Positions 41,748-64,000 of a stretch of 64,000 nucleotides of DNA are shown here, in pieces. Source of the DNA: an uncultured Verrucomicrobiota bacterium. Lineage in GTDB: Bacteria; Verrucomicrobiota; Kiritimatiellia; CAIQIC01; Lenti-01. The stretch lies in contig CALMNW010000014.1 of NCBI GenBank assembly GCA_937872095.1, positions 112,799 to 176,798 on the forward strand. Reading direction: 5' to 3'. The notes under the pieces were generated by a model. It saw only the letters and a list, made by a program, of their open reading frames with translations. It made no database searches and was not told the origin of the DNA. Made by a program: the position numbers and the translations under genes. Position 1 is the first letter of the stretch; every line of letters starts with the position of its first letter.

Positions 41748-42893
41748 TTAGCCGCAAACAACATCCTGTTTCAGCACTTCGAATTTCTCCAGCGCCGTGC
41801 TGACGGTGTTTTCCATGTCGAGATAGGCGTAGGCGCCGAGGCGGCCGCCGAAAACCACGTGGGGGACCTGTTCGGATTCGGCCTTGTACTTCGCCCGGAT
41901 GGCCAAGTCCGCGTCGTTGCGCACCGGATAATACACGTCGTCGCCGGGACGGGGCGCATAGGAGTATTCCCGGAAGACCACGGTCCGTTCGAACGTCCGC
42001 TCGGGCGTGAAATGCTTGAATTCGTGCGTCCGCGTGTACGGCACGTCCCCGTCGCACTCGTTCATCACGGACGTGCCCTGGAAATCCGCCACGCCCGGCA
42101 GCAATTTTTCGAACCGGACCGAACGCCAGCCCAAGCGACCGTGCCGATAGTCGAAAAACTGGTCGATCGGCCCCGAGTAAACCAGTAAGTCGTGGGCCGG
42201 CAGCGCGCCCCGAACGTCGAAATAGTCCGTGTTCAGGCGGATTTCGATATTGGGATGCCGCAGCATGTTCCAAAACAAGGCGCCGTAGCCAGCGACGGGA
42301 ATGCCTTGCCAGCGATCGTTGTAATAGCCCACGCCGTAGGTGTAGCGCACCGGCAGCCGAGTGATGATGTAGGCGGGGAGTTCCGTCGCCTTCACGCCCC
42401 AGTGCTTTTCCGTGTATTCCTTTACAAACGCCTCGTAGAGCGGACGTCCGACCAAAGAAAGGGCCTTTTCCTCGAGATTGCGGGGCTTGTCGATCCCCTC
42501 TTTCGCGACTTCCGCCGCGACCCAGACTTGCGCCTCGGCCGGCGACAACCGGCGGCCCAGAAGCAGGTTGATGGCGGCCAAGCCGAACGGCAGAGGATAG
42601 ACCTTGCCCTTGCGCGTGGCCCAAACCGTATGCCGATAATCGTTGAACGACGTGAATCGGTTCAGGTATTTCCAGCCTTGTTCGTGCGAAGTGTGGAAGA
42701 TATGCGGACCGTAGGTGTGCACTTCCACGCCGGTGTCGGGATCCGGGCAGGACCAACAGTTTCCGCCCACGTGGCTTCGTTTTTCCAGCAGCAAGACTCG
42801 CCAACCCAACTCGTTGGCAAATCGCTCCGCCATCACCGAGCCATAAAAGCCGGCCCCCACGATGACCACGGTCTTGGTTCCCTTGTTTTCCAT
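41748..42893 (-). CDS. glf: UDP-galactopyranose mutase
   Basis: VVIVGAGFYGSVMA FAD motif, YGPHIFHT, GRLGAYAYLDMENTV. Start at ATG 42893 (MENKGTK). Confidence 0.93.
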   Translation of the reverse strand: MENKGTKTVVIVGAGFYGSVMAERFANELGWRVLLLEKRSHVGGNCWSCPDPDTGVEVHTYGPHIFHTSHEQGWKYLNRFTSFNDYRHTVWATRKGKVYPLPFGLAAINLLLGRRLSPAEAQVWVAAEVAKEGIDKPRNLEEKALSLVGRPLYEAFVKEYTEKHWGVKATELPAYIITRLPVRYTYGVGYYNDRWQGIPVAGYGALFWNMLRHPNIEIRLNTDYFDVRGALPAHDLLVYSGPIDQFFDYRHGRLGWRSVRFEKLLPGVADFQGTSVMNECDGDVPYTRTHEFKHFTPERTFERTVVFREYSYAPRPGDDVYYPVRNDADLAIRAKYKAESEQVPHVVFGGRLGAYAYLDMENTVSTALEKFEVLKQDVVCG

Positions 42894-43033
42894 GTGAAAT
42901 TCCAAATTGCTTGCCCATCATAGACGAAATAGACCTCCATGCAAGCCCGGGAGCGGCCCTTAGATCGCCTGGCGGCAGCCGGTTTTCCCCGCTTGCCGGG
43001 GGCGCAGGGCTTCGCTACTCTGGGCAGGCAAGC

Positions 43034-48774: not shown

Positions 48775-48849
<75 letters not shown>

Positions 48850-48862
48850 TTTTCGCCATCGA

Positions 48863-49663
48863 ATGAATTGCATCATTTGGAATTCCGTCGTCGCCCTGTC
48901 TTTGGCCTGCTTCTTCCTGCCTCCTTCCCGCGCACAAGCGGTCTCCACCAATCTCACCTTCGCCGATGGCCAAATCGCCTGCGAATTGTCCTCGCAACGC
49001 GAAACCATTCCGGACCTGGTGCTCGCCACGTTGCCTGTCGCGATGGACGCCGCGCGGAAGGCCATTGGAACCCCGAACGAACCGGTGCGTCTTTCGATCC
49101 GCCTTCTGGAACCCCCGCCTTTCTACAAACGCCTCAAAACCATGTTCCAAGTCGAGGCGTATGCCGTTCAGGAGAACGATGAAATCCGACTGCATGCGGG
49201 CCATGATCCCCTGAAACTCGCCTTTCGCCTCGGCCACGAGCTTTCCCATTGGCTGGTCTACAAGCGGTATTCCGTTCGGCCGCCGCTCTGGTTGGACGAA
49301 GGTCTCGCCCAGATGGTCGCCGGCAGCGCCGCCGAAGCCTGCGCCCGCACCCACAAACAAGATCTCGAACGTCCGCGACCGCCCAAGCTCGATGAACACA
49401 TGTACAGTCTCGGCGAATTGATTGCCTTGCGGACCTATCCCAGGTCCGCAGCCTGTTCCGCCGCCTTCTACTGGCAAGCCGAAGCGCTCGTCGGCGCCAT
49501 CCACAAACGGCTGGGTCCCGCCGAGTTCGCCGTTTATCTTGGCCTGCTTTGCGCAGCCGACGCGCCGGCATGGGACATTCCCCTGCGCGAACGCTGGTAC
49601 TTCTCCGATTGGGACCTGAATTGGCTCGCGGAGCAAATCCGCCCCGGGCCAAACGGGAAATAA
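48863..49663 (+). CDS. Secreted hypothetical protein with HExxH zinc-metallopeptidase-like motif
   Basis: Signal peptide MNCIIWNSVVALSLACFFLPPSRAQA, then GHELSHW. The track ORF starts at 48797 inside the tRNA; trimmed to ATG 48863. Confidence 0.6.
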   Translation: MNCIIWNSVVALSLACFFLPPSRAQAVSTNLTFADGQIACELSSQRETIPDLVLATLPVAMDAARKAIGTPNEPVRLSIRLLEPPPFYKRLKTMFQVEAYAVQENDEIRLHAGHDPLKLAFRLGHELSHWLVYKRYSVRPPLWLDEGLAQMVAGSAAEACARTHKQDLERPRPPKLDEHMYSLGELIALRTYPRSAACSAAFYWQAEALVGAIHKRLGPAEFAVYLGLLCAADAPAWDIPLRERWYFSDWDLNWLAEQIRPGPNGK

Positions 49664-49679: not shown

Positions 49680-50960
49680 ATGACACCGATGCACTCCACC
49701 CAATCCGACGATCCCGAACGAGCCTGGCTGGTTGCCGCCACCCTTGGAGACGCGCCCCGGGCCGAGATCGAAGATTCCCTTCGCGAACTGCGCGCCTTGG
49801 CCGGCACCGCCCGCGCGGAGGTCGTCGGCGAAACGTTGTGCCGGTTGCGTGCCCTTCAGCCCGCGACCTACATCGGCCGGGGCAAGGCCCAGCAAATCGC
49901 CGCGGATCTTCAAGCCGCCGGAGCCAATCTCGTTATTTTCGACGACGATCTCACTCCCGCCCAAGGGCGATCCCTCGAAGAAATCTTCGGCATGCGCGTG
50001 GTGGACCGGACCCAGCTCATTCTCGACATCTTCGCCCAGCGCGCCCTGACGCTGGAAGGCCGCCTCCAGATCGAGCTGGCCCAACTCCATTACCTGATTC
50101 CCCGCCTGCGGGGGCTCTGGACGCATTTGGAGCGCCAAAAAGGCGGCATTGGACTTAAAGGCCCTGGCGAGAAGCAGTTGGAACTGGACCGCCGCCGCAT
50201 CGAGCAGCGCATCGGCCGCATCCGCGACCAGTTGCAGCTCGTGCGCCAGCGCCGGGCGGAGTTGCGCCGCGGGCGACGCCGGCATGGCTGGGCTTTGCTC
50301 ACGCTGGTCGGGTATACCAACGCCGGCAAATCGACGCTCTTGAATCGCCTGACAAATGCCGGCGTGCTGGCCGACGACCAGTTGTTCGCCACGCTCGATC
50401 CCACCACCCGCCAGATCCAATTGCCCAACCATCAATTGTGTTTGCTGACCGACACGGTGGGCTTTATCCGCAAGCTGCCCCACCACCTCGTGGAATCGTT
50501 CAAAGCCACCTTGGAAGAAGTAAACGAGGCCGACCTGCTCTTGCACGTCATCGACGCCTCCCAGCCGCGGGTAGACGAACAAATCGACGCCGTGGAGGCC
50601 GTCCTGCGCGAACTGGGGGCCCAGAACAAGCCCGTTTTGGCCGTATTCAACAAAACCGATCTGGACAAAGGACGCAACCAAGCCATACGGCTTGCCGACC
50701 GTTTCCGCCATTCGACGGCCATATCCGCCGCCACGGGCGAAGGAACCACCGCCCTTTGCCAGACCATCGCCGACCTGCTGCGCGACCGCGTCGCGCATCT
50801 GCATCTGAAGATCCCGGCCGGAGAGGGCAAAACCATCGCCGCCCTCCACGCCAACGGCAAGGTGCTGGCCCAGAAAGTGCGCGGGAAGCACCTGCATATC
50901 GAAGCCATCGTTTCGGCCTCCCATGCAGCCACGCTCGATCCCCGATGGATCGAGCGGTGA
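49680..50960 (+). CDS. hflX: GTPase HflX
   Basis: HflX N-terminal domain, G1 GYTNAGKST, G3 DTVGF, G4 NKTD. Confidence 0.92.
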   Translation: MTPMHSTQSDDPERAWLVAATLGDAPRAEIEDSLRELRALAGTARAEVVGETLCRLRALQPATYIGRGKAQQIAADLQAAGANLVIFDDDLTPAQGRSLEEIFGMRVVDRTQLILDIFAQRALTLEGRLQIELAQLHYLIPRLRGLWTHLERQKGGIGLKGPGEKQLELDRRRIEQRIGRIRDQLQLVRQRRAELRRGRRRHGWALLTLVGYTNAGKSTLLNRLTNAGVLADDQLFATLDPTTRQIQLPNHQLCLLTDTVGFIRKLPHHLVESFKATLEEVNEADLLLHVIDASQPRVDEQIDAVEAVLRELGAQNKPVLAVFNKTDLDKGRNQAIRLADRFRHSTAISAATGEGTTALCQTIADLLRDRVAHLHLKIPAGEGKTIAALHANGKVLAQKVRGKHLHIEAIVSASHAATLDPRWIER

Positions 50961-51100
50961 TTCCGGCTCCAGCCCGCCCCCCAAACCGGCCACGCACACC
51001 AGCCGCGGCCATACTCTTCTTGCTCGCCGGGAGCAGGTCTGGACATCCGGTCACCCGGCGTCCATCGCCGACGCCGCCGCGGGCGGAGAATGAATCGGGC

Positions 51101-54100
51101 CTAGTTGGTGCTTTGGGCCCCGGCCAAGACGGTTCCGCCGGTCAGATAGTTCACGGTCAAACCGGTTCCGTTGTATTCATAGATCTTCACGGCGTACCAT
51201 AATCCCGGATTGAGCCCCTGCAACAGGAAGGCACTGCCGGTTCCGTCGTAACAGATCTTGTTCCCGTCGCCCTTATCCAAGGCTTGCATGAAGTCCACGT
51301 TCACGCCTTCAGGCGCCACTCCATCCAAAGGCGTCCAAGTGGTCGTCGTTCCTTGTCGGACGACGACGATGCGCCGGGCGCCGTTGCCAGACGTCCAACT
51401 CATCCCGATTTGGGTGGCGCTGACGTTGGTAAAGATCAAGGAGTTCGCGTTCGCCGTCGGCTCATCCGCAAGATCGGGCAACGTCGGCGTGCCGGTCCAC
51501 CCCATCCACCGGGTCGGGAGCTGCGGATAGAAGTCGGTCGGGTAGTAATACCACGTCCAGCTGTTGCCCAGTCCGCCGTTCTTCGACACGATGACGATCA
51601 CGTCGTTGGGCTTGAAGTAGCCGCCGGGGACCAATCCGTTGTTGCTCACAAAGCGCCAAACGCTGTTGGTGTCGCAGTAGATGGTACTGCCTCTCAATAC
51701 GGATTTCGTCGTGGTGTCCAGCGTGTAGATTTCGTCGCTCTGGCCCCGGAGGCCCTTCGTGAATCCGCTGGAAACCAGGCGCATCTGGCTGGGATGGGCG
51801 GCCACGGGCAGACGCAGCGACACCACGTTGTACACCGGCGCGATCGGATCGTAGCGGTTACCGCAATGGATCACTTCGCTGAATCCGGCCGCGTTGGTCG
51901 GGACCTGCGCGATGGCCGACCAGATCATGGCCGGAACGCTGCTGGTCTTGGTGTAGTCCGTCCAGGCATTGGTGTTCACGTAGCCTTCCGGCAAGGGATC
52001 CGGCAGCGTGATCGAGAATCCGCGGCTGAAGAAGTCGTTGGACATCAGCATCGTGGTGACGTCGGTGCTGTCGTTCTCGCGGATCCATTGGCCGCTTTGG
52101 GTAAGGTAGAAGGCCTCGGCCAGCGGCGCGTTGGTTCCCCACGAGAAGAACTCGACCTTGGTGCCATCCAGCGCGCTGGCTCCGCCGGGGAAGCTTTCCA
52201 CGCCGCCGAACACGCCTTCGAACGTGTTGGTATACGGCACGCCGTGGAGCGAGACGAAGTTCTGGCCGGCCGACAACACGATGTTGTGGATGGCGTAGAC
52301 TTCCTCGCTGGCCAGCGGCCGTTGCGGGAGGACGACTGTTTCGTTGCTGATCACGGCTTCCCGGAAGGTCTTCCAGCGATCCTTGTAGGAGGCCCGGTAG
52401 AACCGGATGTCGCCGCGATCGCGGGCTTGGCCGCCGTCGTCCACGAACCAGTTGGAGCGGACGGTGCCGACCAGCTGCCACGTGTTGTTGGTGCTTTCCC
52501 GGAACGTGCTCGCATCCCAGTAGATCAGGTCGTAGTCCTTCGTGACGTTCGTATACACGCCATTGGTCTGGAAACCGGCCGCAAGCCAAGCCAGTCCGGC
52601 GGCGGTATCCACGTTGGTCCGGGTCAAAGAACCGGCCGACGGGAAAGCCGCCAGCGCATCGCTCTTCGGCAACGTCCAGCCGCGGGTCAGCGCGAACTTG
52701 ATGGTGTTGTTCGTCGCCCAGCTCGAGATGTTCGCCGGACCTTCGTTGCCGGCCCGGTCCACGCCCACGATCACGACGGCGTAGTCCTGATCGAAGTCGA
52801 GGTCGTACAGGCGGATCTTGTTTTGGGGCAGGTTGGTCAGCGCCAGATAGTTCGTGCCGGTGGCCGAGGGGTCGGAGATCGGCGTGTTCCAGGTCGCGCT
52901 GGGCCAGGTCCGGTAGGTTCCGGTGGCGATGAAGTTCGTATAGATGAACCCCGTGTCGGTGCTGCTCGGGTTGTCGTCCGAAGGCACGTCCATTGAATTG
53001 AATACGCCGTAGTAGATCTTGTAGGAACGCCACGGCGACAGGATGTCCCGCGGGACGGGTTCCGTCAGGCCCCACGACGGGTAGTTGGAATGGGTGGTGA
53101 GATCGGGGCCTACGTTGGCGGTATACCACTGCACGTCGAACTGCGTGGTGGGATCGTCCACCAGCTCGGTGGAAGCGCCCGTGGCATAGCCGATCGTGGC
53201 CACCGGCGTCGGCGGCGTCACGTCGTATGCGGTGTAGAATTCGACGGGGTCGCCGCCCATCCGGTCGTTGGCGCGGTTGTTGTCCGCGTCCACCGCGAAC
53301 AAGTAGCTGGGATTGGAGATGCCCTGATTGGCCGCCGTGGCGGTGAATCGCATCGACGGCAGGTTGGTTCCGATGTCCACGGACAGGCGGATGTCGTCCC
53401 AGTAGGTCGTATTGCCGCCGCCGTCGATCAGGGAGATCTTCAGCACTTCGGTTTCGTTGTCGCCGACCGCCACGGCGGGCGCGATCGAGAATGCCGTCCA
53501 CTCGTTTGTTTCAGGCAAGCTCAAGTTCTCCGTATCCGTCGGCGTGACCAGGTTGGTGGCCGCGAACGCCTCGATCCGGAAGGTGGCGCCGGCGACCGTA
53601 TCGCACCGGTACCAGCCGCTCACTCCCACGACCGGCGGGTTGGACGCGAGATTGCGGAACTCGATGAACTGGGACGCCGAGCCGCCATTGGCGGTCTTCA
53701 GGCAGTTGGTCCCTTCATACGGCTCGTTCGTATCGCCATATCGGCCCTGGAAATGGAAGAAGCTGTCGCCGTTGGTCGTCCAGCCGACGTCCCGCATTTC
53801 GAAGCCGTAGTTGGCCAGGGCGCCATTGGTGGCGGCCACGGCATACGGCATGCCGTAGGCGGCGCGGTTGCTGGGCGCCATCGAAGCGACGTCGTTCGTC
53901 GTCACGCGGTATTCGCCGATGCCGGTGAGGATGCGCTGCTTGGCGGTATAGTTCGTGCCCGGATCCTGATCCACGGCCACCGAATCGAAGGTGACGATGA
54001 ACTCGGGCTGGTTGGTCCACGGGGCGGTTTCGCGGGTCACCGAACCGACCGGCATGCCATTGACGCGAACGACGCCCACGGTGCTGGGCACGCCGAGGTC

Positions 54101-57100
54101 GTTGTCGACGATGTACAGCGCCAGATCGCCGGTCATCTGCAAGTCGTCGTAGGTGCGGTCGTCGTCGTAATCCCACACGCTGGAACTGCCGAGGTATTCG
54201 CCCAGCATCAGATTCGTGTAGGTCGGCCGCGGCAGGTCGGCCGTGAACGATCCGCCCAGCTCGTCCAGCACCTCGCCATCGACGAAGTTGGAAGCGAAGT
54301 TGAAGACCTGGTTGGTGACGAACACCCCGCCATCCGGCGCGTTCATCGAGAAGCGCGGGTGTTTGGTTGCGTCGGCGTTGTTGGTGGAACAAATGCCGCT
54401 GTCGCTGTCCCAGGTGTGGCCTTGCAGCGCGTACGTCCCGCTGGCGAACTCTTCGTCCGACACTTCGGTGACGCCGTTCGTATCGGAAACCACCTGGCGG
54501 AAGGTCAGGTTGTGGAGCGACCAATAGGTCCCGATTCCCGTGTTGTTGGTGGCGTTGTAGTAGCCGTGGATGCGGAATTGGGTGGTCTGGTCTGCCGGCA
54601 GAACGAACACGTTGGTCGGATAGTTCTGGGAGAAGGAGTACCACGTGTTCGTGACGATCGGACCGTTCGTGCTGCCCGAGAAGGTGTACGGGCCCTGCTG
54701 CCGGACCTGCACGTTGTCCACGAACTGGCGGATATAGAAGTACGTGGGAGCGTTGGTCGAGTTGAACCGCGATTGGAACGTGATGTTGGTCACGGCCATA
54801 TCGGCCTCCGGCACCATGCTGGCGGCCCAGTACTTGGTGTTGTAGTGCCAGGCGTTGGCGCGGATCGCGTAGGTTCCGCCGGTGGGACCGACTTCGAACA
54901 GATACGGGACCTTGTCCTCGCCGTTGAGCGTGCCGGTCTTCAGCACGTCGACTTCGACGCTGGAATCGGTCTTGGTCGCGATGGTTCCGTTGGTCTTGGT
55001 GAGGAAGAGCCACTGGGCGAGAATGCCCGAACGCGGCTGCATCGACGTCAAGGTCAGTTTCGGCCGGATCGTATCGTCGTCCAGCACGCGCATGCGGCCG
55101 AGGCTGCCGTTGAACCACAGGATGTCGCCGGCCCGGTCGAGGTCGGCGTCCGGAACGTCGATCGTCAGCGGAATGCCGGCGCCGGCGGCCGATTCCAGGA
55201 CCAGATCGGTGATGTCGGCCTTCGAGAACGCACCGGTAGCCGAACCGACGTTCCACCAGAGGGTCGATTCCTCGGACTTGCCGTCGTCCACCAGATTGGC
55301 TTTTCCGGCGTCGACCGTGCCGGTCATGCTGCCCATCCGCATGACGGCCTGGGCATCTTGGATGCCGCTGCCGGGGTCGTACACGTTGCCTTGGACCTGG
55401 ATCTGGTAGCCCGATTCCGCGATCTGCGCGTCCGTCATTTGCAATTCGTCGGGTACGCCGATCAATTGGATGTTGTCCATGCGGAAGGCGCCGTCGTTGC
55501 CGCCGTAGCCGGGACCGAGGACGAACTTCAGATAGACCTTGGCGGAACCTTTCGGAACCACGCCCGACAGATCGATATAGCGCAGCCGCCAATCGGTGGC
55601 ATCCGTCATGGTCCACGGCGGCCAGAGGGCATTGGTCTGGAAGGAGCCGTCGAGACCCGTCAACGACCACTGCACGGAAACGTTGGTGAAGCTGTGCGAT
55701 CCGCCCCGCTCCGCCCAGGACAGGGTGATGTCTTCGGCGGAAACCAGCGGCAGCTCGAACTGGACGTACGGCACGTTCGCCGTGCTGAAGCCCCAGGAAC
55801 CGATGGCTGCCATGTACAGTTCGCCCCGCACGGCCTGATCGAATCCGTCGAACATTTCGTTGACGGTCGTGCCGCCGGTGCCGACGTTGATCAGTTCATT
55901 CAGGTACAACGGCGTCCAGGTGATATAGGCGTTGGTCAGCAGGCTGCCCCACCAAGGAATCCGGGCGCCCTCGACGGTGCTGTTGGTGAAGCTCCAGGCC
56001 GTGAGCACCACGTCGCGGAGACCGTTGGTCAAGGCCATGTCCACATACGGATCCGTTCCGACCTTGACCGCCGTATTGGTGCCGGCCACCGGCGGATCCT
56101 CGTCGTCGTCGTACACGTTGAAGACGATGAAGCCGCCCAGACCGACGATGCGGTCGTAGGCGCCCGCCGTCGCGATGAAGTTCGTGAAGCCCACCAGGTA
56201 GTCGCTTTCCCAGACGCGATAGTCCCATTGGTTGGTGTTGACGTGTTCCGGGTAATACCAGGGCACTTCGGCATCTTCCGTGCGCTGCATGATGTAGCGG
56301 GCCGCCAGTTCCTCGCTCGGTCCGATGCCGCAGATGTCGATCCATTCGTTCGTGTTCGACATGCGGAACAAGCCCACCGGATCGTCGCCGCTGACCTGCA
56401 GCACGTCGTTGGTGCTCAGGATGTAGGACCTTCCTTCGGCCGTCAAGGCATCGACCATCTCTTGACGGGCCGAACTGTTTTCCGTCCCCGTCGTGCCTAG
56501 GAGTCCGCCGTTGACGATGGCCAAGGTCGTGCCGTGGTCCAGCCAGTAGGTCGTGTCGGACAGCCGGAAGATATGGGCCCATTTGACGTACTTGTCGGCC
56601 GGGGTCGTCTGGCTGGCGAGATAGTACTGGCTCAGGTCGATCGCGGCGCCGGTGCCGTTGTAGATTTCCACGTACTTGTCGTAGTTGTTGCCTTCGCCGA
56701 ATTCGCCGAAGAACAGATCGTCGGCTCCGCCCTGGTCGGACAAGACGATGGTGTTCGTTTCCTTCAGGCTGGTGGAGGTGATCCAGACGCGGGAGGTGTA
56801 GGTCGCCAGATCCACTTCGTTCGTCGGCAAGCGGTCGACGATGATGTTGGTGAAGAGCTGCCAGCCGCTGGAATAGGTGGTGTTGGACAGCACGATCTGG
56901 TTCGTCGGGTTGTAGAGATAAACGTTGGGATCCTGCAGGTCCAGCAGGTTGAACTCCGCTTCCGAGATCCGGGTGCGGTGGTAGACCTTGAAGGCGACCG
57001 GATAATTCGTGTCGGGCTGGGCCAACTGGCCGTCGGACACCCAGTTGGTGTTGTTGTCCAGATAGTAGTCGTACACCCGCGGATAGGTGAAGTTCAGCAC

Positions 57101-60100
57101 CTCGTCCCACGTGCCGCCCACGCGGATTTCGTCGAAATACACGTGGTCGAGCGACGATCCGCCCTCGGCGGCAATGCCCGCGGCGAGACGGATGCCGGTG
57201 ATGCTGGAAACGCTGATGGCGTCGTTGCTGTAGTAGGCGATCGGAGGCGCATCGGCGTAGTTTTCCGGAATGCCGTAGCCCTGGTCGCGGTGGAACGCCC
57301 ACATCCGGACCGTATGGTTCGCGGAATCCAGTTCGCCCACCATCATGTAATCCGCGAAGTGGTTCGCCTCGAGCGTATAGGTGTTGCCGGGCGGATTGGT
57401 CGTGGTGATCGTGGACGCCGTGTCCACTTCGTAGATGCCCGCGAGGTTGCCCGAACCCGCCGGTTTGCCGAAGAAGACCTCCTCGTTGGTCGCGCCGGTG
57501 CCGCTCATGAGCGAGACGCCGACGAACTTGTTCGCGCCGTCGAAGTCCGCCGTCTTGTAGTTCATCATGAAGGCCACGAACGTGCGGCCGCTGCGCGGCA
57601 CCGACAGGACGCGATGGATCTGGCCGGTCACCGGCACGTTGGAATTGTAGATCCACTGCAGCTTGTTGGCGTACGGCGTCGGGTAGCCGATGGTCCCGCT
57701 CAACAGGTTCGTGTCGTCCACGTTCAAGAAGACGCGGTCGTCGCCCTGCCAGGCGCCGCTCCAGCCCTGGCCGGTGGCCAGACCGTCCTGATTGAGCAGC
57801 GTGACGTTGTTGGTGTAGGCGAACTGGTCGCAGATTTCGCCGCGCTCATACATCGGCGTCGTGACCGGGTTGGTTGCCGGCGACGCATAGGCGGCGGAAT
57901 AGGTCGTGCCGGCCCGGCCGAACAGGCGGAAGTAGTTGGCCGAATTGGGCGGCACCACGAGTTCGAGGTGGCTGTCCGCACCGATGCTCCCCAGATAGGC
58001 CACCGTGGCGTTGCCATAGACGTCGTTGACCGCGAGGCTGGTCCCCTTCGCGATGCTGTTGCTGGCGATGGCGCCGTTGGTGGACCACAGCAGCGCCACG
58101 GCGGCCGCATCGTTCAGATCCCAATTGAGCACGACCATTTCGGGACCGTCGGCCGCCGCCGTGAAGTTGGTCGGACACGCCACGTAGGCCGCGATGCCGA
58201 ACGAATACTGGTTCGTGGTCTGCGTCCAATCGCCGGGACGATCCGTATCGTAATCCGTGCTGACGATCTGGAAGATGAACTGCTGATCGACCGAGTTCAG
58301 CAAGTTGCCGTCGACGGTGGCGGTCAGCGCGGCGAACTCGTTGCTGATCCCTTCCCCATCCACGTCGGGGGTCATCGTCATCGAGCCGGTGGCGATCACG
58401 GTGCCGTTGCTGATGAGCGACCACACGTTGCTGGACGCATAGACGCCGCTCGGGATATCGGCCACCAGGCCGGTCACGATCAGGCCGCCCGGCAGGAAGT
58501 CGTTGGTCGCGAAATTCATGCCGTCCACGTTGAACCCGCTGTGTTCGGGCCCCTCGTCGTCTTCGTCGATCACCGTGAAGTTGAGCAGCGAATTCGTCGC
58601 CGTTCCCAGGGTCAGGATCTTGACGTTGTCGATCGTCATGCGCTTGTTGCTGCTCGACTTGTTGGTGATGCCGATCACCACGTCGTTGCTGAACGTCAGG
58701 CCGGAGATCGCATAGGTGTAGATGGTGACGGTATCCGGCGGCATGGCGGTCACGGTGCCGACGACGGTGCCGTTGACCAGCACGTCGTAGTCGAAAGCGC
58801 CGGATTCGGAGAAGGGACGCTTGTAGTCGAAGGTGATCGACGTGCAGCCGTTGGTAAGCTGAGGCGAAACCAGATAGCCCAGCGGACCGACGGTGGGCGC
58901 CTTGCCGGTCAACGGCTGGTCCCAGCGGGTGGCCTTGAACAACCACTCGCCGAGATCGGCGTTGTCGACGGGCCACGTTCCCGCGCTGGGCAAGTAGGAC
59001 GAGCTGTTGCTGACCACGTTGTTGAAGGTTTCCACAAGTTCCTGGACGCCGCCGCCGAGCGTCCGGTAGTTGACGTCGTCGACCATCTGGATGCCGTTGG
59101 AACTGATGGAGGTGACGCGAGCGGTATAGACGCCCAGCGTGGCGGGATAGAACGGAGGCGGCACGCCGACGAAGATGGTGCAGACGTTCCCCTCGTTCGT
59201 CACGGCGACCGTGGCGGAGAGCGGCACGTTTTCGACCGCGAGCGTGCCGTCCGGATAGAGCAGGTCGAAGCTGGCGCCGTCGGGCCGCATGCCGGTGTAC
59301 TGGTAGATGGTGAAGCTGGCCGACAGCTCGCCGTGGGCCGCCGCGTGGTCGGTCACCTCGTTGGGCACCGCGAGGGTGTCTTCGATGGAGTAGTCGATGA
59401 TTTCCGGCGGCGTGGTTTCGGGGTCGTAGCAACTGCCGAGCAGCTGGACCGTCGCGTCCGGATCGTTGACGGAATCGTTGTGGATCGTCATCGTCCAGTC
59501 GAAATAGCCGCCGCCGGCCGGCGTGAAGTACACCGTGATGTTGAGCGATTCGCCCGCCGGGATCGACACCTGGTCGACGTCCGACTCGAAGAGGGCGTAG
59601 CCCGTTCCGGTGAATTCGATGTCGTCGATGTACAGCGCCATGTTGCCGCTGTTAGTCACCGTGACCGTCATGTTCGAGGTCATCCCCACCCCGACCTGGC
59701 CGAAGTCCAGCGTGTCCGGATCCACCTGGAGGTACGGCGCCAAGATGCGGAAGTAATACTGGTTCGACGCCACCAAGGTGTCGCCGACGTACTCCGGATC
59801 GAGGTCGGAGCCGACGAGGGCCAGCACGTAGTTGCCGCCCGGCAGCGACGCGCGCGCCACGGAGGTGGAGAGCGACAGGGCCGCGGACATGCCGTCGCCG
59901 TTGACGTTGGTGCCCGCCGGCAGATAGCCGGAAGCGATCACCGTGGTGCCGGTGCGGAGGACGTAGCGGTTGCTGGCAACGACGAGGCCGCTGTCGTAGT
60001 CCTGGATGTCCCAGACGATGGGCAAACCGTCCGCCGGCACGTCCGCGAGGAGGATGTCCGGCCCGGGCGAACCGCTCGAAGGTTCGACGCCGCCGACGTA

Positions 60101-63100
60101 GACGTTGACGATTTCGGGGCCTTCCACGTCGTCGTCGTCCACGGTGAAGTGCATCAGCTTGCCGAGCGAGCCTTCCATCTCGTGGAACCCGAGGTCATCG
60201 ATCGTGTCGATGGCGTAGGTGGCCCATTCCAGATCGTTGTAGACCGAAGCCGCGTTGGTCACCGAGATCAGGCGACGGCGGGTGGTGTCCTGATAGTAGT
60301 TGCCGCCGCTGGGACTGGCGCCGAAGGCGTCCACGGGAACTTCTTCGCCGATGCCCTTCATCAGGAAGATGGAATCGTCGCCGTTGAAGGAGCAGATGTT
60401 GTCGTTGGTCCAGTCCGCCACGGCCAGGATGCCGGCGGCCGCGCCGGAATTCGCGATCACGAAGGTGTCGCCCGGATTCAGGATCCGATCAGGCAGTTCT
60501 TCGTAATCCCCCCATGCGGTCGTGTTGTCCCGTTGGAGGCGGAAACCGTAGTTGGAGATCACCACCGGCACGCCGGTGCCGTTGAAGATTTCAACGGCCT
60601 TGTTGTTGCTGCTGCCCTCGACGTATTCGGTGATGATCAGGTCGTCGGCGACCGTCACGCCGTCGGCGGTATAGAGCGTCTGGGTGGCGCCGATCAGGTT
60701 GGAGGCCATCAGCGTCACCTGGAGCTGGTAGTTGGTGGACGGCGTGGCCGGCCAGTAGCCCGGATGGGCGGCGTCGGACAGCGTATAGGACAGGCCGTCG
60801 GACGACGTCCAGGTGTCGAAGGCCTCGTTCGTCAGGATGACGTCGCCATCGTCGTTGACGAGGTTGTAGGACGCGCTGAGGAGGCCGCGCACGTGGAAGA
60901 CCTCGGCGGAGACGGCGAACACGCCGGAGGTGATCATGGCGTCGTTCACCCACCGGTTCTGGCCGACGAAGTAGTTGGAGACCATCGGCCAGTTGGTGGA
61001 CACGGTCGGGATGCCGGTGCCGATGATCTGGATCGGGTACGGATTCACGCCCGAGTTGTTCGACACCACCAAGGTGGCGGTATAGTTGCTGGTTCCGGAA
61101 TTCGTCGGCCAGAACGTGACGGTGAAGCTGTTGCTTTCCAGATACGTGAGGATGTCGTCGAAGCGGTTCGTGCTGATCGTGAAGTAGCCCGCGTCGGTTC
61201 CGGAGATCGTGATGGACGGGTCGTTGGTCACGTACAGCGGGACGTTGTCGCCGCCGCTGTTGGCGATCCAGACCGTCAGGTTGCTGGAGAGCGTGGATTC
61301 CACGTCGCCGAAGTCCACCAGCGACGGCCACGGGATCAGGCCGGGCTGGCCGATCAGTTCGGGCCAGATGGACGACACGCGGATTTCGTCCCAGATCGCG
61401 CCGCCGAGCCAGCCGGAATCGCTGCCGCCCTTGAGTTCGATGGACGTGAACTGCGAAATGGCGCCCAGACCCGACCATTCCGCATCCCAAGTCGCGGGTT
61501 CCAGGTACGGGATGTTTTCGCCGCGGTAGAAGCACTTGGCGTAGGCGGTGTCGACGTCGAAGTCGTACTTGATCACCATCCAGTACCAGTTGTTGGTGTC
61601 GGCATTCCATTCGTTCATGGCATAGGTGCTGAGGGCGTTCGCGCCGCCGCGGCGGATGCTGAACAGATTGCTCGCGCCGTACACCTTGCCGAATTCCAGT
61701 TGGGTGTTGTCGCCGTCCATCAGGCCGATGGTCATGTACTTGTTGGCGCTATCCACGTCGCCGTACCGGTAAGCCACGATGGCGCCCACGAAGATCGTGC
61801 CGCTGTTGGTGGCGGTGATCGTGCGGCGCGCGGTGTTGTTGCCCGTGCCGTTGGCTTCCAGCACGGCGCGGTTGCCGACGACGGTCGGGTAGTTCGACTG
61901 GGTGACGCGGAACATGGGCTGGCCGGTCACGCCGTTGGTCTGCACGGTCCAGCCGTGGCCCGCCCCGGCGGTCGTCAGGCTCCAGCCGGCGGTCCACTGG
62001 TGGCCACCGGTCTTGTTGGAGAAGCTGCCGACGTTCAGGTCCACGTTCGTGTAGGAGAAGGTTTCCGAATACACGTTCGAGGGATACGGCATGGTGATCA
62101 ACGGGCTGCCGGGGATCAGGCCGTCCGAGTAGTACGGATACGGCAAGCCCAAGCCGTCGCCCTGGATGCTGTAGATCCGGTAGTGGTTGGTGGCGTTCGA
62201 CGGCACCACGTGTTCGCGGAAGCCGGCGGCGGGGCCCTTGTAGACGACCGTCGCGGTGTCGATGGCGTCGCCCTGCGCGTAATTGGTGCTGGGCCACGGG
62301 AACTGGGTGACCTGGGCGACCGTCGAATGGAGCACGAGGATGGGATCGCCGTTCGGGTTGCCCGCGACCGTGGACCGGGTCATTTCGCGACCGTCCAGCG
62401 CCAGAACCGCGGACGTCACGTTGCTGACGGGGGTCCGGAAGCCGACGGCCGGAGCGCTCCACACGCCGGTGCTTTCGCTGGTGTCGTTGGTGCCCACGAT
62501 CCAATAGTAGTAGGGCCAGCCCGGAACGGCGGTCGTGTCGTCGAAGGTCACGACGTCGGCGGAAACGGTGCCGACGCAATCGGCCGTGTTGGTGTCGTAG
62601 GACAGGCTGCGCCAGACGCCGTAGGCGGTCTCGCCGACGATGTCGTCCCAGGTCACGACGACCTTGTTCGTATAGGTGCCTTCGGTGGCCGCCACGTTCG
62701 TCACCGTGGCCAGCCGGCGATAGCCCGTGTCGTTGGTGCCCACGGCGCTGGAGCCGGCCCGGTTCGTCGCCGTCACCCAGTAGTAATAGAGCTGGCCGGG
62801 AACGGCCGTCGTGTCGTTCCAGTTCGTCGTGCTCATCCCGTTCGTATGGATGGCGCCGGCGTTCGTCGCGCTGGCGATGTCGTCCGAGGTCCAGCGCCAG
62901 ATCAGGTAGCCGGTTTCCGTCGACATGTCGCTCCAGTCCAGCGCCACGTGGTTGGTGCTGGTGCCGTCGGACGCCTGCAGATCCAGCTCCGGCGGCGGCG
63001 ACGGCGGGGTCACCGTCGTGATCACCGGCTCGGTGTCCGAATTCGCGCTGACGCAGCCGCCGTCGCTTTCCGCGCGCACGCGGTAGTAGTAGGTCGCGTC

Positions 63101-64000
63101 TTCGACCAGGCCCGTCACGATCTGGCTGGTGGCGGGACTCGCCACGTACAGGTCCTCGTACCCGTCCACGTAGCTCGAACCGATGGTCGCGCCCATCACC
63201 TTGACGTCGTCGATGACCCAGACTTCGGACGACGCGTTGTTGGTCGTGACGATCTTGAGGGCCAGCGAGGAAGCCGTGTCGGGGATGGAGATGCGCGCGG
63301 TGGCGTAGTTGTTCTCGTTGGAGCCGGACTGCGGCGCCGACACGCTGACGGGCGTGCCCGCGACGGTTTCCACGACGCCCGTGGCGGTGAAGCCCCAGCG
63401 CGCGTTGGCGGTGGCGGCGCCGGTGATTTCGACGTCCGGAACGACGGCGAAGGCCGCGCCGTTCACCGCCACGTAGATCTCCACCTTGTCGGTCAATTCC
63501 GCGCCGTTGGTGTTGTTGGTCGCGATGCTGGCCACGTGCACTTCCACGGTGCGGGACATGTAGCCCTCGAGGGACGAAGCGGCGAGCTGCAGCGTGCCGG
63601 CGCCGTTGCGGCGCTGCCACGAATAGCTGCCCGTCCGGATGCGGCCGGCCGTCGGATTGTCGGTCAGCGGATTCTCGTTCGAAACGTAGGCGTTGCCCAA
63701 GGTGATGGTCCAGTTGTCGCCCACGCCGCCTTCGAAGCCCTGGCCCAGGAACGTTTCCTGCGCGCCGGCGGAGCCGCCCGTGAAGTACGGGTTCATGCTG
63801 ACGTCGAGCCGGTAGCCGTTCGCGCCCTCCGAAGCCTCCCACCAGGCCACGAAGCTGTTGGTCGTGATGTTTTCGGCCGGCAGCACCTGCGGCGGCGGCG
63901 GCGGCGAGGTCGTGTCGTCGTCCGCCAAGCCGTCCGAGTAGCGGCCGTCGTAGTACGAGAACATCATGTAGTAGTAGTGCGTGCAGCTGACCAGACCCGT
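51101..64000 (-). CDS. Giant repeat-rich extracellular/surface protein (FN3, lamin-tail (LTD), ASH/choice-of-anchor-D Ig-like and ConA/LamG-like modules); N-terminus beyond window
   Basis: 4,288-aa ORF from the first Met at 63967. The frame remains open through position 64000 (hand-checked), so the protein is longer and its signal peptide unseen. FN3 signatures (YYYRVRA, YYYWVTATN, YYYWIVGTN); two LTD modules (LIITEYVEGSSNNKAVEIFNGTG about 60.4-60.65 kb; LFFGEFGEGNNYDKYVEIYNGTG about 56.5-56.7 kb); ASH-like FGQVGVGMTSNMTVTVTNSGNMALYI about 59.5-59.7 kb. S/T/N-rich throughout. The antisense 1,136-aa ORF 53090..56500 has no motifs. Confidence 0.85.
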   Translation of the reverse strand, partial: TGLVSCTHYYYMMFSYYDGRYSDGLADDDTTSPPPPPQVLPAENITTNSFVAWWEASEGANGYRLDVSMNPYFTGGSAGAQETFLGQGFEGGVGDNWTITLGNAYVSNENPLTDNPTAGRIRTGSYSWQRRNGAGTLQLAASSLEGYMSRTVEVHVASIATNNTNGAELTDKVEIYVAVNGAAFAVVPDVEITGAATANARWGFTATGVVETVAGTPVSVSAPQSGSNENNYATARISIPDTASSLALKIVTTNNASSEVWVIDDVKVMGATIGSSYVDGYEDLYVASPATSQIVTGLVEDATYYYRVRAESDGGCVSANSDTEPVITTVTPPSPPPELDLQASDGTSTNHVALDWSDMSTETGYLIWRWTSDDIASATNAGAIHTNGMSTTNWNDTTAVPGQLYYYWVTATNRAGSSAVGTNDTGYRRLATVTNVAATEGTYTNKVVVTWDDIVGETAYGVWRSLSYDTNTADCVGTVSADVVTFDDTTAVPGWPYYYWIVGTNDTSESTGVWSAPAVGFRTPVSNVTSAVLALDGREMTRSTVAGNPNGDPILVLHSTVAQVTQFPWPSTNYAQGDAIDTATVVYKGPAAGFREHVVPSNATNHYRIYSIQGDGLGLPYPYYSDGLIPGSPLITMPYPSNVYSETFSYTNVDLNVGSFSNKTGGHQWTAGWSLTTAGAGHGWTVQTNGVTGQPMFRVTQSNYPTVVGNRAVLEANGTGNNTARRTITATNSGTIFVGAIVAYRYGDVDSANKYMTIGLMDGDNTQLEFGKVYGASNLFSIRRGGANALSTYAMNEWNADTNNWYWMVIKYDFDVDTAYAKCFYRGENIPYLEPATWDAEWSGLGAISQFTSIELKGGSDSGWLGGAIWDEIRVSSIWPELIGQPGLIPWPSLVDFGDVESTLSSNLTVWIANSGGDNVPLYVTNDPSITISGTDAGYFTISTNRFDDILTYLESNSFTVTFWPTNSGTSNYTATLVVSNNSGVNPYPIQIIGTGIPTVSTNWPMVSNYFVGQNRWVNDAMITSGVFAVSAEVFHVRGLLSASYNLVNDDGDVILTNEAFDTWTSSDGLSYTLSDAAHPGYWPATPSTNYQLQVTLMASNLIGATQTLYTADGVTVADDLIITEYVEGSSNNKAVEIFNGTGVPVVISNYGFRLQRDNTTAWGDYEELPDRILNPGDTFVIANSGAAAGILAVADWTNDNICSFNGDDSIFLMKGIGEEVPVDAFGASPSGGNYYQDTTRRRLISVTNAASVYNDLEWATYAIDTIDDLGFHEMEGSLGKLMHFTVDDDDVEGPEIVNVYVGGVEPSSGSPGPDILLADVPADGLPIVWDIQDYDSGLVVASNRYVLRTGTTVIASGYLPAGTNVNGDGMSAALSLSTSVARASLPGGNYVLALVGSDLDPEYVGDTLVASNQYYFRILAPYLQVDPDTLDFGQVGVGMTSNMTVTVTNSGNMALYIDDIEFTGTGYALFESDVDQVSIPAGESLNITVYFTPAGGGYFDWTMTIHNDSVNDPDATVQLLGSCYDPETTPPEIIDYSIEDTLAVPNEVTDHAAAHGELSASFTIYQYTGMRPDGASFDLLYPDGTLAVENVPLSATVAVTNEGNVCTIFVGVPPPFYPATLGVYTARVTSISSNGIQMVDDVNYRTLGGGVQELVETFNNVVSNSSSYLPSAGTWPVDNADLGEWLFKATRWDQPLTGKAPTVGPLGYLVSPQLTNGCTSITFDYKRPFSESGAFDYDVLVNGTVVGTVTAMPPDTVTIYTYAISGLTFSNDVVIGITNKSSSNKRMTIDNVKILTLGTATNSLLNFTVIDEDDEGPEHSGFNVDGMNFATNDFLPGGLIVTGLVADIPSGVYASSNVWSLISNGTVIATGSMTMTPDVDGEGISNEFAALTATVDGNLLNSVDQQFIFQIVSTDYDTDRPGDWTQTTNQYSFGIAAYVACPTNFTAAADGPEMVVLNWDLNDAAAVALLWSTNGAIASNSIAKGTSLAVNDVYGNATVAYLGSIGADSHLELVVPPNSANYFRLFGRAGTTYSAAYASPATNPVTTPMYERGEICDQFAYTNNVTLLNQDGLATGQGWSGAWQGDDRVFLNVDDTNLLSGTIGYPTPYANKLQWIYNSNVPVTGQIHRVLSVPRSGRTFVAFMMNYKTADFDGANKFVGVSLMSGTGATNEEVFFGKPAGSGNLAGIYEVDTASTITTTNPPGNTYTLEANHFADYMMVGELDSANHTVRMWAFHRDQGYGIPENYADAPPIAYYSNDAISVSSITGIRLAAGIAAEGGSSLDHVYFDEIRVGGTWDEVLNFTYPRVYDYYLDNNTNWVSDGQLAQPDTNYPVAFKVYHRTRISEAEFNLLDLQDPNVYLYNPTNQIVLSNTTYSSGWQLFTNIIVDRLPTNEVDLATYTSRVWITSTSLKETNTIVLSDQGGADDLFFGEFGEGNNYDKYVEIYNGTGAAIDLSQYYLASQTTPADKYVKWAHIFRLSDTTYWLDHGTTLAIVNGGLLGTTGTENSSARQEMVDALTAEGRSYILSTNDVLQVSGDDPVGLFRMSNTNEWIDICGIGPSEELAARYIMQRTEDAEVPWYYPEHVNTNQWDYRVWESDYLVGFTNFIATAGAYDRIVGLGGFIVFNVYDDDEDPPVAGTNTAVKVGTDPYVDMALTNGLRDVVLTAWSFTNSTVEGARIPWWGSLLTNAYITWTPLYLNELINVGTGGTTVNEMFDGFDQAVRGELYMAAIGSWGFSTANVPYVQFELPLVSAEDITLSWAERGGSHSFTNVSVQWSLTGLDGSFQTNALWPPWTMTDATDWRLRYIDLSGVVPKGSAKVYLKFVLGPGYGGNDGAFRMDNIQLIGVPDELQMTDAQIAESGYQIQVQGNVYDPGSGIQDAQAVMRMGSMTGTVDAGKANLVDDGKSEESTLWWNVGSATGAFSKADITDLVLESAAGAGIPLTIDVPDADLDRAGDILWFNGSLGRMRVLDDDTIRPKLTLTSMQPRSGILAQWLFLTKTNGTIATKTDSSVEVDVLKTGTLNGEDKVPYLFEVGPTGGTYAIRANAWHYNTKYWAASMVPEADMAVTNITFQSRFNSTNAPTYFYIRQFVDNVQVRQQGPYTFSGSTNGPIVTNTWYSFSQNYPTNVFVLPADQTTQFRIHGYYNATNNTGIGTYWSLHNLTFRQVVSDTNGVTEVSDEEFASGTYALQGHTWDSDSGICSTNNADATKHPRFSMNAPDGGVFVTNQVFNFASNFVDGEVLDELGGSFTADLPRPTYTNLMLGEYLGSSSVWDYDDDRTYDDLQMTGDLALYIVDNDLGVPSTVGVVRVNGMPVGSVTRETAPWTNQPEFIVTFDSVAVDQDPGTNYTAKQRILTGIGEYRVTTNDVASMAPSNRAAYGMPYAVAATNGALANYGFEMRDVGWTTNGDSFFHFQGRYGDTNEPYEGTNCLKTANGGSASQFIEFRNLASNPPVVGVSGWYRCDTVAGATFRIEAFAATNLVTPTDTENLSLPETNEWTAFSIAPAVAVGDNETEVLKISLIDGGGNTTYWDDIRLSVDIGTNLPSMRFTATAANQGISNPSYLFAVDADNNRANDRMGGDPVEFYTAYDVTPPTPVATIGYATGASTELVDDPTTQFDVQWYTANVGPDLTTHSNYPSWGLTEPVPRDILSPWRSYKIYYGVFNSMDVPSDDNPSSTDTGFIYTNFIATGTYRTWPSATWNTPISDPSATGTNYLALTNLPQNKIRLYDLDFDQDYAVVIVGVDRAGNEGPANISSWATNNTIKFALTRGWTLPKSDALAAFPSAGSLTRTNVDTAAGLAWLAAGFQTNGVYTNVTKDYDLIYWDASTFRESTNNTWQLVGTVRSNWFVDDGGQARDRGDIRFYRASYKDRWKTFREAVISNETVVLPQRPLASEEVYAIHNIVLSAGQNFVSLHGVPYTNTFEGVFGGVESFPGGASALDGTKVEFFSWGTNAPLAEAFYLTQSGQWIRENDSTDVTTMLMSNDFFSRGFSITLPDPLPEGYVNTNAWTDYTKTSSVPAMIWSAIAQVPTNAAGFSEVIHCGNRYDPIAPVYNVVSLRLPVAAHPSQMRLVSSGFTKGLRGQSDEIYTLDTTTKSVLRGSTIYCDTNSVWRFVSNNGLVPGGYFKPNDVIVIVSKNGGLGNSWTWYYYPTDFYPQLPTRWMGWTGTPTLPDLADEPTANANSLIFTNVSATQIGMSWTSGNGARRIVVVRQGTTTTWTPLDGVAPEGVNVDFMQALDKGDGNKICYDGTGSAFLLQGLNPGLWYAVKIYEYNGTGLTVNYLTGGTVLAGAQSTN

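Follow-up and report, generated by a model that had tools for sequence, protein, structure and literature searches.

The 64,000-nt stretch of contig CALMNW010000014.1 that was analysed here (referred to as the window) contains, on its minus strand, the 3' portion of a giant gene. We propose that its product is a putative fibrillar adhesin that is Sec-exported, acidic and glycan-binding, an assignment that we consider probable. The encoded part consists almost entirely of beta-sandwich modules, namely FN3 domains, immunoglobulin (Ig) domains of the choice-of-anchor-D type, two lamin tail domains (LTDs) and jelly-rolls with the fold of carbohydrate-binding modules (CBMs), and no catalytic motif was found in it. 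As giant adhesins are well known and proteins of at least 10,000 amino acids (aa) are reported to be frequent in the phyla of the Planctomycetota-Verrucomicrobiota-Chlamydiota (PVC) superphylum (10.1101/2023.11.21.568195), the class itself is not new. What is new is a conserved C-terminal module (hereafter CTD) and a family core that, as far as taxon labels go, is restricted to one lineage. A literature search on giant proteins or adhesins of Kiritimatiellota found nothing.

An unbroken giant gene that runs past the window edge

Residue numbers of the giant protein are counted from the window edge at position 64000 along the minus strand.

51101..64000, minus strand: giant gene, 3' portion, 4,299 codons and a TAG stop codon, a single open frame with its 5' end off the window

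From the TAG at 51103-51101 the frame stays open to position 64000, with no in-frame stop over 4,299 sense codons, for which the window base composition gives a chance of about 1e-50. The GC content at third codon positions (GC3) is 0.89 in this frame and 0.43-0.56 in the overlapping frames. Relatives align with the translation from residue 2 onwards, which shows that the ATG at 63967, given as the start by the open reading frame (ORF) listing, is internal and that the gene runs past the edge. The giant gene is genuine and uninterrupted, and it extends upstream beyond the window, as a preliminary description of this sequence had stated.

Intact frames of 11-23 kb that are colinear with or related to the giant gene occur in seven other assemblies. 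These are L003 (6,595 codons), L008 (7,593), L009 (7,657), L007 (4,196), L011 (4,950), L018 (3,841) and L021 (4,153), where L-numbers denote relative loci and, below, P-numbers denote relative proteins. In L001, L002, L004, L005, L006, L033 and L034 the homologous region is broken across many frames with its colinearity kept, which we attribute to assembly errors; the contig name of L001 states a coverage of 3.2. These split relatives are what would speak for an artefact, that is, a misassembled chimera, genes fused by error or a decaying pseudogene. However, they change frame repeatedly and still remain colinear, and the frame in the window is unbroken over 12.9 kb, with a GC3 of 0.89 in that frame alone. 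The unbroken frames in seven other assemblies and a conservation of 55-70% that is even along the entire length also argue against an artefact, which we regard as extremely unlikely. The preliminary description had suggested a check for repeated segments as a sign of assembly collapse. Since there are no long near-identical DNA repeats inside the giant gene that could cause it, collapse is not indicated; the longest repeat (D3) spans 79 nt at 80% identity and links the two LTDs.

Three ORFs lie opposite the giant gene on the plus strand (51203-52996, 52997-56500 and 56501-64000, the third with 2,500 codons or more), with a GC3 of 0.52-0.56. Their boundaries coincide exactly with the sole TTA (51200), TCA (52994) and CTA (56498) codons of the giant gene, and we rejected them as genes and regard them as shadow frames produced by the extreme GC3 bias. 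An ORF on the minus strand just past the giant-gene stop (50432-51046) was judged to be spurious, as it has no family match and is antisense to hflX.

Full length and signal peptides in relatives

Relatives indicate how far the gene may extend. L003 is one unbroken frame over the full 19,786-nt locus, open at both ends, and residues 2-3835 of the window protein are colinear with its residues 2778-6595 at 58% identity. As residue 2 of the window protein pairs with residue 2778 of L003, the L003 protein extends upstream past the window edge for 2,777 residues or more. We joined L003 aa 1-2777 to the window protein to form a composite reference of 7,076 aa, and further relatives were gathered by a metagenome scan seeded with the sequence of L001 and L002 just upstream of the composite start. 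Over its first 3,355-3,406 residues, the composite is colinear with L008 (70.5% identity), L009 (55%) and L007 (72%), and the frames of L008 and L009 are open at both ends. Altogether, the giant gene is colinear with L003, L001, L002, L006, L007, L008 and L009 at 55-72% identity. L008 contains 4,240 further residues upstream of the composite start, and thus at least 7,000 aa beyond the window edge, so that adding the 7,076 aa of the composite brings the L008 orthologue to at least about 11,300 aa. The full giant protein is probably about 11,000 aa long, judging from these alignments. The preliminary description, which gave more than 4.3k aa, was therefore right in calling the protein giant and understated its size.

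The upstream parts of the relatives contain FN3 arrays, PKD-like domains and PATR repeats, and the giant gene may share this architecture. One relative differs here: comparison of L002 (GCA_030153565.1) 5716-9678 with L003 reveals a jump from composite residue 473 to 3042. This gap takes in the PATR region and the part that matches the first ~265 window residues, and it reflects either real length variation or a collapse between similar FN3 modules.

N-termini are available from other family members. L013, from the same sample as L008, matches the N-terminal part of L008 at 69-89% identity and begins with a classical Sec signal peptide (...AWIVAGTFCLMASLAQA/ANI or, in a longer form of the start, ...HKGLAWIVAGTFCLMASLAQA/ANIISQ, where the slash marks the presumed cleavage site). 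L012 is a complete member of 5,880 aa that has a signal peptide and closes with a CTD, as does the product of the gene that precedes it with a CTD of its own. By a simple heuristic, 21 of the 37 collected proteins of at least 3,000 aa, nearly all of them CTD matches, have a signal-peptide-like N-terminus.

Module composition of the giant protein

The encoded fragment has a mass of 465 kDa, a pI of 4.2, 1.5% lysine and 17 cysteines in 4,299 residues. This acidic composition, low in lysine and with few cysteines, is that of an extracellular protein. Pfam and NCBIfam were searched with the whole protein and with 520-aa segments (E up to 1), which, together with self-comparison, gave the following modules, all on the minus strand.

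62996..63895 (aa 36-335): FN3-like module with an inserted beta domain of ~190 aa, flanked by short Pro-rich linkers, as read from the sequence
62426..62995 (aa 336-525): two tandem FN3 domains, Pfam fn3 at aa 336-418 with 30.2 bits on the segment
60965..61348 (aa 885-1012): choice-of-anchor-D-type Ig domain, copy 1, NF012200, self-similar to aa 1425-1539
60323..60649 (aa 1118-1226): LTD 1, PF00932 with 47.5 bits (cut-off 34.3)
59432..59749 (aa 1418-1523): choice-of-anchor-D / HYDIN-ASH Ig domain, copy 2, PF22544 with 50.3 and PF15780 with 30.3 bits
56324..56719 (aa 2428-2559): LTD 2, PF00932 with 35.8 bits (cut-off 34.3), self-similar to LTD 1
51161..51442 (aa 4187-4280): extra terminal FN3 domain, Pfam fn3 with 22.2 bits, under the cut-off of 25

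On the whole giant protein, PF00932 scored 73.1 bits (gathering score 34.3) and the NCBIfam choice-of-anchor-D model NF012200 scored 70.7 bits (cut-off 45) over two stretches, with which the HYDIN/ASH Pfam models concur. In the tandem FN3 pair, aa 340-429 are self-similar to aa 435-523. We are moderately certain of the division of aa 36-335 into an interrupted FN3 domain and an insert, which is suggested by sequence: aa 1-64 are self-similar to aa 296-366, and weak PhoD_N / Pur_ac_phosph_N matches fall at aa 286-313. Self-comparison also uncovered an old duplication of a super-module (aa 498-1187 and aa 1909-2500) made up of four domains (FN3-like, jelly-roll, Ig and LTD), besides two smaller duplicated units. 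Five domain starts carry the motif V-x-D-D-D-x-x-x-P, three of them at aa 2629, 2972 and 3297, and this motif recalls the calcium-binding linkers of cadherins, by analogy.

Of the module types that the preliminary description had read from the translation, these searches recovered the two LTDs, two ASH/choice-of-anchor-D modules and the FN3 modules (aa 336-418, its neighbour at 435-525 and the C-terminal one at 4187-4280). Of the S/T/N-rich linkers that it also named, the composition stands, as the whole protein is rich in threonine, serine and asparagine, but only a few short Pro/Ser/Thr linkers were seen.

A motif scan found no LPxTG, PEP motif, RTX GGxGxD, HExxH or GDSL in the giant protein, and neither the whole protein nor its segments gave a Pfam or NCBIfam match to a glycoside hydrolase, lyase, sulfatase, peptidase or dockerin/cohesin. 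Sequence searches of the PDB gave no match with the whole protein and none with the family profile. N-x-S/T sequons number 55, as compared to 51 +/- 6 in shuffles, and there are two D/E-x-N-x-S/T sites; as sequons are not enriched, N-glycosylation of the giant protein was rejected.

CBM-like jelly-rolls in the C-terminal half

Two further features on the minus strand lie in the half of the protein that the domain searches left unassigned.

53231..56143 (aa 2620-3590): string of beta-sandwich and jelly-roll domains, without a Pfam match, from a structure model
53366..53848 (aa 3385-3545): likeliest CBM4/16/22-like jelly-roll, model residues 789-923 all-beta with a pLDDT of about 75-85

The AlphaFold model of aa 2620-3590, made from a 21-sequence alignment (predicted local distance difference test, pLDDT, 67), predicts a series of beta-sandwich domains and one small mixed alpha/beta domain. 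The latter occupies aa 2852-2951 (window about 55148-55447) with a pLDDT of about 80. The fold matches of the model were CBM4, CBM22, hyaluronan- and alginate-binding modules and MAM domains. The best of them are CBM-type folds, with ~130 residues aligned at 16-23% identity, and the predicted fold is the jelly-roll beta-sandwich of solved CBM4/16/22/61-type modules. The CBM matches most likely stem from the module at aa 3385-3545, according to the model. This module opens with ...ALANYGFE (NYGFE at aa 3397), a start that we take to be typical of the CBM4/9/22 group. The relative P0101 has a faint CBM_4_9 match only. The jelly-rolls that the preliminary description had noticed are thus retained, although by their fold matches they look CBM-like rather than LamG-like.

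Identity to relatives is 55-70% and even along the protein, with dips to ~45% at aa 3001-3200 and aa 3401-3500. Both of these least conserved stretches are jelly-roll modules, and the likeliest CBM-like module overlaps the second of them; over the aa 3385-3545 region identity falls to 44%. Low identity in the jelly-rolls is the pattern expected of diversifying ligand-binding sites.

A conserved C-terminal module and family core

Two conserved elements, again on the minus strand, unite the giant protein with its relatives.

51503..52723 (aa 3760-4166): CTD, an FN3-like subdomain and two beta subdomains, conserved across homologues
51500..58588 (aa 1805-4167): conserved family core of ~2,360 aa, from a blastp search with the composite

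The CTD is a previously undescribed module of ~400 aa, or ~350-400 aa across the family, for which no Pfam, NCBIfam or PDB match was found. It contains an FN3-like subdomain (..YDLIYWDA..RFYRASYKDRW in the giant protein, YDLIY.DA...RFYR..DRW in the family) that is followed by a first beta subdomain (..PGQNFV.. and EVYA..L.PGQNWV.L.G.P, respectively) and a second one (..HPSQM..FKPNDVIVIV..W.W..LPTRWMG and YNLVSL.LP..HPSQM..SGF..SD...WY.T.D.WRF...PDD.IVI). A local hidden Markov model (HMM) of the CTD matched aa 3760-4166 of the giant protein over the full profile (360.8 bits, E 8e-109). When aa 3890-4170 were compared to 1.84 billion representative proteins, 137 matches were found, 57 of them at E up to 1e-30, and in 49 of the 50 strong matches that cover the query end the CTD ends at most 13 residues from the C-terminus. 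A CTD profile search yielded 83 proteins, of which the labelled ones all come from Kiritimatiellia-type metagenome-assembled genomes (MAGs), with several per MAG. The taxon-labelled CTD matches come from Kiritimatiellia MAGs or from MAGs labelled Spartobacteria.

CTD-bearing proteins span about 250 to 7,684 aa, and the CTD is joined to diverse N-terminal parts that include LTD, SdrD_B, CLIPPER, PATR and FN3 domains. The smallest consist of a signal peptide and a CTD; P0231 and P0245 have added N-terminal regions. Besides its signal peptide and CTD, P0231 has a region with a weak match to an autotransporter peptidase passenger (NCBIfam EprS, E 2e-6). Nearly all small CTD proteins that were inspected end in ...W.W..P..Y.PPTxxM(T/N)P. 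Homologues were gathered with the 1,200-aa ends of the giant protein as queries, and most of the proteins homologous to the last 1,200 aa terminate one residue after the sequence ...FKPNDVIVIVSxNG..W.W.Y.P..FY.LPTRWMG. In the giant protein the CTD is not terminal, as 133 residues that include an FN3 domain come after it and the protein ends in ...VLAGAQSTN*. Among the inspected C-termini, only the giant protein, P0088, P0089 and P0102 have an FN3 domain past the CTD. This terminal FN3 is 52-60% identical to internal FN3 modules in the N-terminal region of relatives and to one in a neighbouring PATR giant of L006 (L008 3116-3487 and 7544-7924, L009 2465-2830, L013 5006-5377, L006 23431-23796), which suggests domain shuffling within and between these giant genes. 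The preliminary description had found no sorting signal at the C-terminus. This holds for LPXTG, PEP-CTERM and the CTD of the type IX secretion system (T9SS), but it missed the conserved module of ~400 aa that precedes the terminal FN3.

The core aligns with P0117, P0122, P0141, P0129, P0136 and P0179 at 33-49% identity over about 2,400-2,800 columns. As aa 1805-4167 are colinear with other giants (3,300-7,300 aa) that have signal peptides and differ in their N-terminal parts, the window holds the whole conserved core of the family. Both the core and the CTD are restricted to Kiritimatiellia-type MAGs, as far as the labels go.

CTD genes and giant genes also often occur in tandem. L012 contains two CTD genes (2-652 and 848-18490), L006 a CTD giant followed by a PATR giant (10001-15199 and 17086-25199), and in L032 the gene for a CTD protein of 982 aa precedes one whose product, at least 2,929 aa long, has SdrD_B and CLIPPER domains (8001-10949 and 11421-18949).

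Putative adhesin function and alternatives

The long stalk of repeated Ig/FN3-like domains that marks fibrillar adhesins is found in the giant protein and in the upstream FN3/PATR arrays of its relatives, and an adhesin-like role, which the preliminary description had also put forward, is the most likely reading. The protein would be exported by Sec with a cleavable N-terminal signal peptide, as in the full-length relatives. Its long FN3/PATR/Ig chain would form a stalk, perhaps several hundred nanometres in length, that displays CBM-like modules and LTDs to polysaccharide particles or other surfaces. Ligand specificity may be set by the most variable modules (aa 3001-3200 and 3401-3500), and the aspartate motifs may coordinate calcium and make the chain more rigid, as cadherin linkers do. 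Attachment to the envelope or export could proceed via the CTD, which is the weakest step, or via an unseen partner. A suggested role of bacterial LTDs is to direct proteins to membranes (PMC6085458). Degradation of complex marine polysaccharides has been described for cultivated members of the group (bioRxiv 10.1101/2023.06.09.544357).

Among known systems, the closest likeness is to fibrillar adhesins such as MpIBP of Marinomonas primoryensis, an RTX adhesin of 1.5 MDa (PMC4083281, PMC8092209). In common are the enormous size, the acidity, a beta-sandwich chain with aspartate-rich motifs at domain starts, lectin- or CBM-like modules towards the C-terminal half and the lack of enzymatic domains. 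Unlike the about 100 identical repeats of MpIBP, the modules of the giant protein are heterogeneous, it has no RTX repeats, type I secretion system (T1SS) signal or known anchor, and its relatives have Sec signal peptides; in turn, MpIBP-type proteins do not have a conserved end module like the CTD. Relatives bear PATR repeats upstream of the part that is equivalent to the window, as do PATR proteins and type V autotransporters, but no C-terminal beta-barrel translocator and no Pfam or NCBIfam autotransporter match was found, and the model of the CTD is not a barrel and had no outer-membrane protein match in the PDB. The two bona fide LTDs are shared with LTD proteins such as the extracellular nuclease ExeM. 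However, the NCBIfam ExeM model matches the LTD region only, and the giant protein has no nuclease domain. A search for an anchor to the cell surface found no LPXTG, PEP-CTERM, T9SS CTD, beta-barrel or transmembrane stretch in the giant protein. It has no hydrophobic stretch of 14 residues or more and no match to the NCBIfam sorting-signal models, and the T9SS models TIGR04183 and PF18962 had no match at E up to 0.1 for the whole protein and E up to 1 for the last 519 aa, its terminal domain being an ordinary fn3. The family thus does not show the defining features of RTX/T1SS adhesins, autotransporters, T9SS cargo or PEP-CTERM and LPXTG substrates.

The CTD invites comparison with sorting domains. 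Like the T9SS CTD and PEP-CTERM, it is a single conserved element found at the very C-terminus of many different secreted proteins, with several per genome in one lineage. It could be a Kiritimatiellia-specific surface sorting or anchoring domain, ending in ...PPTxxMTP or ...LPTRWMG, that would correspond in function to these two and be carried by dozens of secreted proteins per lineage, giants of about 11,000 aa among them, although we hold this to be unlikely. It is far larger, with about 350-400 aa in three subdomains as compared to about 80 aa for the T9SS CTD and about 25 aa for PEP-CTERM, and unlike these it has no transmembrane helix and no known processing enzyme, and here an FN3 domain comes after it. 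The likeness of 'LPTRWMG' to IPTLxxWG is superficial, as a stop codon or an FN3 domain comes next and not a helix. If the CTD does sort or anchor proteins, it points to a pathway of outer-membrane export or attachment that is new for the phylum; if it is a binding domain only, an ordinary giant adhesin is left.

Several observations weigh against the adhesin reading or parts of it. An anchoring role of the CTD is conjecture. Some proteins consist of a signal peptide and a CTD, and the CTD found here is not terminal; for both observations, an independent binding module is at least as good an explanation as a sorting signal. About half of the giant protein, chiefly aa 2560-4186, has no Pfam or NCBIfam match, and no Pfam CBM model matches it; predicted carbohydrate binding follows from fold likeness at 16-23% identity in a model of medium confidence (pLDDT 67). 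The length and the signal peptide are extrapolated from relatives that are only 55-72% identical, as the protein's own N-terminus lies off the window. Length may also vary between strains, as about 2,500 aa of the upstream part are absent from L002. Finally, no secretion-system genes were found in the window, which covers 51 kb downstream of the giant gene, and no outer-membrane route is evident there.

Other functions explain the data less well. A giant adhesin of the type I-secreted RTX class (LapA, SiiE or the 1.5-MDa ice-binding type of Marinomonas) would share its size, acidity, Ig-like strings, aspartate-rich motifs at domain starts and lectin-like modules; proteins of this class leave the cell through a TolC-type channel with the C-terminus leading, and a retention module at the N-terminus keeps them attached (PMC4083281, PMC8092209). 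However, the giant protein contains no GGxGxD nonapeptide, its C-terminus is an FN3 domain or the CTD and not RTX repeats with a secretion signal, full-length relatives have classical Sec signal peptides, and no ABC, membrane fusion protein (MFP) or TolC genes occur within 51 kb on the 3' side, which makes this origin highly improbable. We also think it very unlikely that the protein is a glycosylated surface-layer (S-layer) or envelope-coat protein modified by the products of nearby glycan genes, as the preliminary description had considered. The window does contain many glycosyltransferase and sugar-nucleotide genes, including one for a PMT_2 protein (36042-38048), the protein is rich in Thr and Ser, and in two relatives a gene for a polytopic membrane protein with a TPR part lies just upstream of the giant-gene start. 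Yet sequons are not enriched, and that upstream protein matched no glycosyltransferase model. The glycan-rich region does not adjoin the giant gene either: the glycan genes lie 8-50 kb off, mixed with housekeeping genes, and hflX, two glycogen-branching enzymes and other housekeeping genes separate them from it. To our knowledge, a chain of ~11,000 aa with roughly 100 different modules is unlike the S-layer proteins that form lattices.

A scaffold or mega-enzyme for carbohydrate processing, in which the CBM-like modules would either direct an undetected catalytic domain or serve to dock enzymes, as in a scaffoldin, would account for the CBM-type folds among the best structural matches. It would also suit the polysaccharide degradation described for cultivated members of the group (10.1101/2023.06.09.544357), and it could draw on the ~half of the protein without a domain match, including the alpha/beta domain at ~aa 2852-2951. 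Against it stand the absence of hydrolase, lyase, sulfatase, peptidase and dockerin/cohesin matches in the Pfam and NCBIfam searches, the absence of HExxH and GDSL, and modelled regions that are nearly all beta-sandwich, and we consider it quite improbable. The giant protein might instead serve cell-to-cell contact or predation, as proposed for giants of Omnitrophota and other PVC bacteria, and not adhesion to a substrate. A survey of Omnitrophota, Verrucomicrobiota and Planctomycetota linked the frequent proteins of at least 10,000 aa in PVC phyla to attachment to other cells; its text does not mention Kiritimatiellia by name (10.1101/2023.11.21.568195). The superphylum and the probable size class of at least 10,000 aa are the same, as are the proposed role in adhesion and a true length obscured by fragmented metagenome assemblies, and the divergence is fast (54% identity, as compared to 86% for the neighbouring hflX). 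However, the peptidase, dockerin and cell-wall-degrading domains of those giants were not found in the giant protein, and the type II secretion, pilus or pilZ genes that adjoin them were not seen in the window (10.1101/2023.11.21.568195), so this role, too, appears improbable.

The giant gene offers a clean, uninterrupted view of a family whose members are split into many 'hypothetical proteins' in most assemblies. Its core of ~2,360 aa is a defined object for study, and the CTD is a compact, lineage-restricted handle for tracing the export or anchoring route. The family bears on how cells of this group hold on to particles, and on the export and retention of proteins of megadalton size and above in PVC bacteria.

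Host and gene neighbourhood

The host is a bacterium of the Kiritimatiellia (PVC), according to homologue labels and the synteny of hflX. All taxon-labelled close homologues come from Kiritimatiellia/Kiritimatiellae MAGs, apart from two labelled Spartobacteria, and the sole relative among GTDB species representatives is 'Kiritimatiellia bacterium isolate BF2_42' (64%). The following features lie on the 3' side of the giant gene.

49680..50960, plus strand: hflX GTPase, convergent with the giant gene (Pfam GTP-bdg_N, GTP-bdg_M, MMR_HSR1)
48797-49663, plus strand: 288-aa ORF without a Pfam match, kept beside hflX in L033 at 61% identity
45115-48687, plus strand: GH13 / CBM48 branching-enzyme-like gene 2, 1,190 aa, with a long C-terminal extension and a weak CBM53 (starch-binding) match
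42866-45055, plus strand: GH13 / CBM48 branching-enzyme-like gene 1
41748-42917, minus strand: second gene of the pair formed by GT14 'Branch' and UDP-galactopyranose mutase
40794-41747, minus strand: Core-2/I-branching (GT14 'Branch') protein, adjoined by UDP-galactopyranose mutase
36042-38048, minus strand: PMT_2-family membrane protein
39814-40782 (plus), 32655-34037 (plus), 18599-20944 (plus), 3177-5228 (minus) and 1318-2610 (minus): ORFs with coding-like GC3 and no Pfam match

The order of giant-gene 3' end, hflX and an ORF of ~290 aa recurs in L033. When L033 8001-13177 is compared to window 49680-52660, hflX is 86% identical and the C-terminal part of the giant gene 54%; farther upstream, the giant gene of L033 no longer aligns at E up to 1e-30. 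The locus is orthologous, and the giant gene diverges far faster than hflX. The stretch between the giant gene and hflX showed no terminator-like hairpin.

Together, the 'Branch' protein, the UDP-galactopyranose mutase and the PMT_2 protein hint at a galactofuranose-containing glycan. Also on the 3' side are sugar-nucleotide enzymes, the housekeeping genes tyrS, pta, recD2 and hisG, and a polysaccharide cluster with GT2 glycosyltransferases, methyltransferases and an ABC-2 exporter.

On the other side of the giant gene, relatives offer a view of what may precede it. Directly upstream of its start and on the same strand, L013 (363-2624, plus strand) and L010 (198-2501, plus strand) encode a polytopic membrane protein of ~750 aa with a C-terminal TPR part. 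The motif HPLxVESVAWIxERKDxLS resembles TMTC/DUF1736-type proteins (of the protein O-mannosyltransferase type), a likeness that searches of Pfam, NCBIfam and the PDB did not confirm, as they matched the TPR part alone. The two proteins, which are 29% identical and have this motif in common, could represent a conserved partner of the giant protein.

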